Source of the DNA: Geobacter metallireducens GS-15
GTDB taxonomy: Bacteria > Desulfobacterota > Desulfuromonadia > Geobacterales > Geobacteraceae
Assembly (NCBI RefSeq): GCF_000012925.1
Contig: NC_007517.1
Location: 3,360,001-3,392,000, forward strand
Reading direction: 5' to 3'
Length of the DNA stretch: 32,000 bases
In this document: positions 3,704 through 3,881 of the stretch, piece after piece
How positions within the stretch are numbered: position 1 is the first letter of the stretch
How the letters are laid out: each line of letters begins with the position of its first letter
Translations under genes and position numbers: made by a program
The notes under the pieces: generated by a model
Seen by the model: the letters and a program-made list of their open reading frames with translations, nothing else
What the model was told of the DNA's origin: nothing
Databases searched by the model: none

Positions 3704-3881
3704 ATTCTCTCCAGTCCCTTTCTTGCGAAAATTCGGGCTCGTTTCGGCCCAAGCAACCGTTCGGGTTGAGGAAAGATGGACACGACGCATTACGCTCTGT
3801 GACGGGCTCAATTGGCCCAAGCAACGACCAAGCTGTCGTGTCCAATTCTGGAGAACATATAACCGGTTACTGAAACATACA
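3704..3881 (-). ncRNA. Putative IS110 bridge (guide) RNA region in the 5' non-coding end of the IS
   Basis: ~178 nt non-coding segment between the IS end and the recombinase start. It contains two near-identical modules, GTTGCTTGGGCC-N6/7-GAGCCCG (plus-strand 3746-3760 and 3814-3829), each able to form a GGGC/GCCC stem. The GTTGCT hexamer equals the sequence at the insertion junctions. Confidence 0.4.

Follow-up and report, generated by a model that had tools for sequence, protein, structure and literature searches.

Results

An IS110-group insertion sequence and its recombinase gene

The window, a 32,000-nt stretch of the Geobacter metallireducens GS-15 genome, contains an IS110-group insertion sequence of 1160 bp on the minus strand (2722–3881), which starts TGTATGTTTCAG at its left end and finishes GAGAACACGGTTGCT at its right end. 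The host genome carries 14 near-identical copies of this element, each 1160 bp long, and the limits were placed at 2722 and 3881 because the 14 copies have common ends. The coding-strand sequences of the two junctions are ...CTC[A/C/T]GTTGCT|TGTATGTTTCAG... and ...GAGAACACGGTTGCT|C[T/C]GTGTT.... Twelve of the 14 copies are identical, one has a single substitution, and one has four; judged from the identical copies, the element is recently active. The circle or tandem junction ACGGTTGCTTGTATG was absent from the genome assembly, and a BLAST search of a plasmid collection returned only distant IS110 genes (67–70% identity over part of the gene). Two copies (L005 and L013; genome C1:58085–60536) occupy a single palindromic element, one per arm, inverted and ∼80 bp apart, and together form a composite-like structure. 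At a further copy (L012; genome C1:118306), the right flank reads TGTGTTCC, without the first C present at the other 13 junctions, reflecting either a one-base target difference or a junction deletion.

The recombinase gene (2747–3703, minus strand; ATG at 3703) encodes 318 amino acids and has matches among both Pfam families and PDB sequences. The ORF contains the Pfam domains DEDD_Tnp_IS110 (2.2e-27) and Transposase_20 (6.8e-21), and phmmer comparison with PDB sequences identified ISCro4 (9t56, E 2.7e-41) and IS621 (8wt6, E 9.5e-38). Alignment placed the catalytic residues at D11, E55, D97, D100, and S235 (i.e., RuvC-like DEDD residues and the Tnp-domain serine), and the motifs GxDxxK (GxDxSK), EATG, KTDxxDA, and SG/ESG aligned with those of IS621 and ISCro4. 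By these alignments, the enzyme is an IS110 DEDD/Ser recombinase and a relative of ISCro4 and IS621, both of which have been studied experimentally.

Duplicated modules and conserved structure in the leader

The left end upstream of the ATG forms a leader of 178 nt (3704–3881, minus strand), the approximate length given in an earlier note on this DNA, which had proposed that the leader encodes a bridge RNA. The two duplicated modules described in that note were located on the minus strand at 3829–3803 (module 1, GGTCGTTGCTTGGGCCAATTGAGCCCG) and 3761–3734 (module 2, AACGGTTGCTTGGGCCGAAACGAGCCCG). The note gave a distance of ∼60 nt between them; the modules start 68 nt apart, with 41 nt from the end of module 1 to the start of module 2. 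The 12-mer GTTGCTTGGGCC common to both modules has exactly two matches in the window, both in the leader, as compared to 0.01 expected from shuffled sequence (0/100 shuffles reached two matches).

Folding of 3704–3881 (minus strand), as the earlier note had advised, gave a minimum-free-energy structure (z −2.35) that recovers the stems of the covariance model described below. A long stem (GGACACGAC/GUCGUGUCC) surrounds an internal loop that has a GGGC/GCCC hairpin as its cap, and a second such hairpin lies 3′. In each module, an unpaired 5′ guide occupies the 5′ side of an internal loop and precedes a scaffold hairpin, GGGC...GCCC. Repeats lying in stems rather than loops had been named in advance as a sign against a bridge RNA; one part of the repeats (GTTGCT) lies in loops and another part in stems, a division that fits a bridge RNA.

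Relatives were collected by a scan of one genome per species, which yielded 76 loci from many phyla with 29–65% protein identity and leaders that align well. A covariance model (R1) was built from 37 leaders, comprising 36 from other genomes and the window's own. RNAalifold predicted 27 pairs, and compensatory changes were seen at 20 of these; the shared fold has two internal loops. The model matched the window leader over 3860–3704 at 103.6 bits (E 1.3e-27), and 41 further leaders also matched. In the model alignment, 95.1% of cells were paired, as compared to 33–44% when the 3′ partners were slid, and 195 cells had changed on both sides, as compared to 17–36 in the slid controls; none of 500 shuffles reached the observed value for any of five measures of structure. 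Within the window's own genome, matches to the model were confined to the 14 copies of the element. The leader thus has two of the features expected of a bridge RNA, namely two internal loops, each with an outer stem and an inner hairpin, conserved with covariation, and a left-end position upstream of an IS110-family DEDD/Ser recombinase. A search with published models had been suggested in the note; an Rfam 15 scan of 2600–4100 (E up to 10) found only chance snoRNA and miRNA matches on the other strand and no curated bridge RNA family. Because Rfam 15 gave no match, membership of the leader among bridge RNAs rests on model R1 and the published description.

The segment 3848–3860 can also pair with 3701–3714 (minus strand; AUAUGUUCUCCAG with CUGGAGAGAAUAU), closing the whole RNA in a helix that covers the recombinase ribosome-binding site and start codon. 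A shorter, weaker helix, U-rich on one side and G,A-rich on the other, occurs at the same place in a sister element from a congeneric genome (G002). This closing helix may couple RNA folding to translation.

Guide segments of the target-binding loop

The outer stem of the first loop is formed by GGACACGAC (3835–3843, minus strand) and GUCGUGUCC (3778–3786, minus strand), and compensatory changes were seen among relatives at each of the eight pairs in the model. The left target guide GUCGUUGCU (3820–3828, minus strand) occupies the 5′ side of the loop; it was positioned by homology and covaries with the flanks in relatives. This guide has the same sense as the left flank CTC[A/C/T]GTTGCT and agrees with it at 6/9 (A-type sites) or 7/9 (C-type sites) positions. 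Sharing of GTTGCT between module 1 and the target flank, as previously proposed, is evident, these being the last 6 nt of the left flank. As a side observation, a one-base bulge could lengthen the pairing of this guide (UC with TC, the variable N skipped).

The inner hairpin GGGC-CAAUUGA-GCCC (3804–3818, minus strand) is a conserved helix with compensatory changes. It is followed by the right target guide CACAGAG (3795–3801, minus strand), the reverse complement of the core CT plus the right flank CTGTG (7/7). The first loop therefore carries left target plus core sense on its 5′ side and the complement of core plus right target on its 3′ side. Directly 3′ of the right target guide is the C of the handshake dinucleotide CG (3793–3794, minus strand). 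This C is nearly invariant, being present in 34/37 leaders at its alignment column and in all but two rows of a further comparison, and it complements G at donor position 7 and, in this element, also G at target position 7. The CT core is present at both junctions of the 14 copies (...GTTGCT|TGTATG and ...GTTGCT|CNGTG), and the crossover point is not placeable within the shared GTTGCT.

Guide segments of the donor-binding loop

The second loop pairs with the joined right and left ends of the element (i.e., the donor). Its outer stem is formed by CCC (3763–3765, minus strand) and GGG at 3718–3716. The left donor guide ACGGUUGCU (3752–3760, minus strand) matches the last 9 nt of the right end at 9/9 positions, and its variants covary in relatives; the 9 nt that module 2 had been said to share with the right end (ACGGTTGCT) are precisely these last 9 nt. 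The roles that the earlier note gave to the modules, first for target and second for donor, are both correct by the guide matches. The 3′ guides, CACAGAG and AAUUUUCGCAAG, are additions to that assignment, which lacked them.

A conserved inner hairpin (GGGC-CGAAACGA-GCCC; 3735–3750, minus strand) separates the left donor guide from the right donor guide AAUUUUCGCAAG (3722–3733, minus strand). In the latter, CAAG pairs with CT plus TG, the G before it forms a G-T wobble, and AU can pair with the AT of TGTAT, with a few unpaired bases between the wobble and the AU pairing. GCAAG is nearly invariant across related elements. A split right donor guide is likewise found in IS621 (A157-U158, C162-G165, and G161-T12; PMC11208158). 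The handshake dinucleotide of this loop is AA (3720–3721, minus strand), the first A of which mismatches the G at target position 7. The parts of the supplements of Durrant et al. that were searched contain elements with the same donor junction (CGGTTGCT|TGTATG), and the target-loop sequence of the present element was not found in them.

Two further candidate pairings were rejected. Pairing of the GAAAC donor hairpin loop with GTTTC (left end and right flank) was not conserved or complementary in relatives, and no pattern was seen there for covariation of the base before AU with left-end position 6.

Covariation of guides with flanks

Covariation between guides and flanks, a test also proposed in the earlier note, was assessed in ∼30 related elements by comparing fixed guide positions with flanks and shuffling the flanks among loci 10,000 times. 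Element ends in relatives were set by a fixed rule, with CT then a TGTAT-like sequence at the left end and a ACAGTTGCT-like sequence at the right end. Observed agreement exceeded the shuffled value for the left target guide and left flank (4.71/7 versus 2.80), the right target guide and right flank (4.83/6 versus 1.72), the left donor guide and right end (6.85/7 versus 6.34), and the donor-loop handshake base (after GCAAG) and target position 7 (29/31 versus 43%). In all four tests 0/10,000 shuffles reached the observed value, a significance somewhat overstated since the relatives share ancestry and are not independent, their targets being nonetheless very diverse. Rare right-end variants are mirrored in the left donor guide, with one exception (ACAGTTA, L058). 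One relative (L073, 140–220) has two candidate left-end boundaries 41 nt apart, of which the outer fits the left target guide and the inner fits the subterminal repeat; it may be a nested or remnant insertion. Use of the inner boundary under the fixed rule reduced the covariation score.

The sister element in G002 (L100 and L101) is present in two copies of 1139 bp with 68% DNA identity to the window element. Its donor arms, both of its donor guides, the right target guide CACAGAG, and the handshake dinucleotides (CG and AA) are the same as in the window element. Two outer-stem positions of its target-binding loop are changed on both strands, and these changes are fully compensatory. Its left target guide, GUUGUGUCU, differs from the window guide at three positions, two of which (UG versus GU) mirror a difference between the target repeats; since the site occupied is CTCTGTG[T/C]CT|CTGTGTT, the sister guide differs where its target differs. 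Of its two copies, the handshake A faces a pairing T at target position 7 in L101 (GTGTCT), as in related elements, and a C in L100 (GTGCCT).

Target repeats and site preference

The target is a palindromic intergenic repeat with two arms of ∼30 nt, built of CTCNGTTG units and separated by a spacer of 45–100 nt. In the window, the left target flank (3882–3911, minus strand) is an arm of this REP-like palindromic element (...TTTTCTCAGTTGCTCAGTTGCT), the 14 copies sharing the consensus CTCNGTTGCTCNGTTGCT, and the right target flank is CTGTGTTTCAATAAG (2707–2721, minus strand). The partner arm of the same palindromic element (3965–4006, plus strand; ...CTCTGTTGCTCAGTTGCT|CTGTGTTATT) is unoccupied.

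Across the genome, 14 GTTGCT|CNGTG arms are occupied and 27 are empty. An A at right-flank position 2 is present in 0/14 occupied and 10/27 empty arms (p = 0.0085). Such an A would give an A-A clash with the guide, which fits the zero occupancy of these arms, and a single A-A clash appears to exclude insertion. The ends of the palindromic element are unlike, with one arm ending GTGTTATT and the other ending GTGTTTCAA. The latter, TTTCAA-type arm was strongly preferred, accounting for 11/14 occupied as compared to 6/27 empty arms (p = 0.0008); among TTTCAA-type arms with a permissive position 2, 11/13 are occupied. The bases that distinguish the arms lie beyond (3′ of) the 14-bp guide-paired stretch, and guide pairing does not explain this bias.

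The window contains a wider REP-doublet-like family (3882–4006, 2707–2721, 6535–6680, and 18328–18490), with arms of three 8-nt units and unrelated spacers. The subfamily with the GTTGCT unit is the insertion target. In the copies at 6535 and 18328 the units are CTCCGTG/CTCCGTC, and the target motif is missing. In congeneric genomes, the orthologous spacer upstream of mutS2 (L096 1875–2043, L099 1859–2010, and L097 1360–1530) holds other palindrome variants or none, the arms being CCTCTGTGTCCTCTGTGGTTAA in G008 and CTCCGTGTCTCCGTGGTGAA in G002, with none in G011. The palindromic repeats turn over quickly yet keep their place. Five related elements from metagenome-assembled genomes belonging to other phyla (L028, L056, L060, L065, and L070; labelled Pyrinomonadaceae, Blastocatellia, Solirubrobacterales, and Coraliomargarita) occupy sites of the form ...GTGTCT|CTGTGG... 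or similar, which resemble repeat variants of the window's genus.

Element ends and a predicted junction promoter

A −35-like hexamer, TTGACT, lies in the right end (2737–2742, minus strand) and a −10-like hexamer, TATGTT, in the left end (3874–3879, minus strand), such that joining of the ends would place TATGTT 17 nt downstream of TTGACT and complete a junction promoter on the circle. TTGAC occurs at the same distance in the right end of most relatives. No sigma-70-like promoter was found on the leader strand of the integrated copy, in agreement with the reported weak expression of integrated IS621 (PMC13626964). Bridge RNA may be scarce unless circles form.

An imperfect subterminal inverted repeat of 8–9 bp (CTGAGAACA, right end; TGTTTCAG, left end) surrounds the 12-bp donor core. 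Related elements carry subterminal inverted repeats of 4–9 bp around a 12-bp donor core C[A/G]GTTG-CT-TGTA. The halves match by eye in L019, L028, L030, L046, and L055, not in L036; they read AACA/TGTT in the window and ATCA/TGAT, AAGA/TCTT, or CCAAGA/TCTTGG in others.

Symmetry of the handshake bases

The target and donor left arms of the element are identical at positions 4–7, with GTTG next to the core in both. In relatives, target and donor differ at position 7 in 26/28 cases; two share one base, as compared to four shared by the window element. The GTTGCT common to both modules therefore reflects an unusual identity between the left arms of target and donor and is not a general property of the scaffold. 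Since target and donor both have TG at positions 6–7, handshake pairing is the same before and after exchange.

The handshake rule, in which these bases pair with non-cognate DNA after exchange and not with cognate DNA before it, is a tuning feature described for IS621 and lies outside the original bridge RNA definition. Among 31 scored elements, 29 follow the rule and the window element is one of two exceptions, its donor-loop A mismatching G7. IS621 gains handshake pairs on insertion (PMC13626964). Hiraizumi et al. (2026) argued that insertion is driven, and excision disfavoured, by handshake asymmetry, and Xie et al. (2026) reported that recognition of the donor arm is enough for excision.

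Each junction of the integrated element resembles one of the two substrates. The left junction, TC[A/C]GTTG-CT-TGTAT, is donor-like: it agrees with the left donor guide at 7/9 positions and with the right donor guide throughout. The right junction, ACGGTTG-CT-CTGTG, is target-like, with 6/9 positions matching the left target guide and a full match to the right target guide.

Discussion

The leader very probably encodes an IS621-type bridge RNA, as proposed in the earlier note and supported by every sequence-level test run. Such a finding was expected, because bridge RNAs are predicted in most IS110 elements. In IS621 of Escherichia coli (Durrant et al. 2024, PMC11208160; Hiraizumi et al. 2024, PMC11208158), the RNA is likewise encoded at the left end upstream of the recombinase and has two internal loops, in each of which an inner hairpin separates a 5′ guide from a 3′ guide. 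Also shared are the CT core, the right donor arm TGTAT, the split guide AU..GCAAG with its G-T wobble, and conserved G residues before and after each hairpin. In contrast, the recombinase match to IS621 is distant (E 9.5e-38), the guides differ, the window target is a REP-like arm, and GTTG adjoins the core in both the target and the donor left arm of the window element.

Elements of the IS1111 group (seekRNA type, right-end RNA) share the recombinase family and have an RNA that pairs with target and donor. The long, RNA-carrying right end with 7–17-bp subterminal inverted repeats of that group was not found; here the left end (178 nt) encodes the RNA, the inverted repeat near the ends is a short one, and the right end extends only 25 nt past the stop codon, for which reason the element was assigned to the IS110 and not the IS1111 group. 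A parallel in target choice is provided by ISPpu9 and ISPpu10, two Pseudomonas putida members of the IS110 family with REP sequences as insertion sites (PMC12288879; bioRxiv 10.64898/2026.03.19.712850). Like the window element, they are multi-copy and aimed at one repeated extragenic palindromic sequence, and the choice of site does not appear to be set by guide pairing alone. For ISPpu10 a preprint reports, as the extra determinant, a GC-rich stem-loop located 5′ of the target, whereas the bias in the window's genome, for the GTGTTTCAA arm over the GTGTTATT arm, resides in bases 3′ of the guide-paired stretch.

By analogy with the IS621 work, from which transcription, protein binding, and chemistry are inferred, joining of the ends on an excised circle would create the promoter TTGACT-17 nt-TATGTT across the junction, and this promoter would transcribe the leader and recombinase gene. 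The RNA would fold into two pseudo-symmetric internal loops, with loop 1 binding the target and loop 2 the donor. Two recombinase dimers, one per loop, would then bring together the circle junction and a chromosomal REP-like arm. Strand exchange would occur at the CT core, leaving the element between ...GTTGCT and CNGTG....

Against the bridge RNA reading stand the failure to find a sigma-70-like promoter for the leader in the integrated copy or a matching Rfam 15 family, the modest agreement of the left target guide (6–7/9), and the mismatch of the donor-loop handshake base with the target. Of several possible alternatives, it is very unlikely that the leader is mainly a cis-acting mRNA leader controlling recombinase translation, with incidental flank matches. 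The minimum-free-energy fold does pair 3860–3848 with 3714–3701, over the GGAGAG ribosome-binding site and the AUG, and the sister element has a weaker helix at the same place; however, translational control leaves unexplained both the guide-flank covariation at four separate segments and a right donor guide pattern near-identical to that of IS621, and the two roles are in any case compatible. That the modules are instead DNA-level subterminal binding sites for the recombinase (i.e., left-end direct repeats that are not parts of RNA guides) is extremely unlikely. As expected of such sites, the modules are direct repeats near the element end, and subterminal inverted repeats (CTGAGAACA and TGTTTCAG) exist among related elements. 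Yet the stems in and around the modules pair through two-sided changes (20/27 pairs), which is not predicted for a DNA site, the variable parts track the flanking target rather than the protein, and the right end is without a copy of the module.

Two of these weaknesses, the handshake mismatch and the 6–7/9 agreement of the left target guide, would also be expected if the bridge RNA were a relic in an immobile element, with guides that no longer fit a live target. This explanation is scarcely credible, as 12/14 copies are identical over 1160 bp and all copies lie in the same motif, insertions fill 11/13 preferred arms whose right flank is permissive, and the catalytic motifs are intact. The preferred reading, an RNA that bridges target and donor, accommodates what was observed: the anatomy of the element, conserved structure, guide-flank complementarity and covariation, catalytic motifs, and 14 site-specific insertions. 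The element is an ordinary new example of the known bridge RNA system with a few unusual details.

The scientific value of the finding is modest and lies in a natural target data set and a symmetric handshake. The 14 occupied and 27 empty sites of this genome make up a compact set of natural data on a single guide. A further determinant of target choice, lying beyond the bases that the guide pairs with (arm ending TTTCAA versus TTATT), would provide another layer of recognition. Lost handshake asymmetry bears on the balance of excision and insertion, a matter of concern to designers of bridge editors. Comparison of the arms and junctions raises the possibility, which we regard as unlikely, that this is a natural bridge system that has lost handshake asymmetry and in which both element-chromosome junctions mimic full substrates. 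If so, excision could proceed through the efficient type of complex used for insertion, in which each loop holds one DNA, instead of the strained cross-loop complex of IS621 excision. More circle formation would follow, which could explain the 14 near-identical copies and near-saturated preferred arms of this genome, in contrast to the sister element, which keeps the usual asymmetry and is present in two copies.
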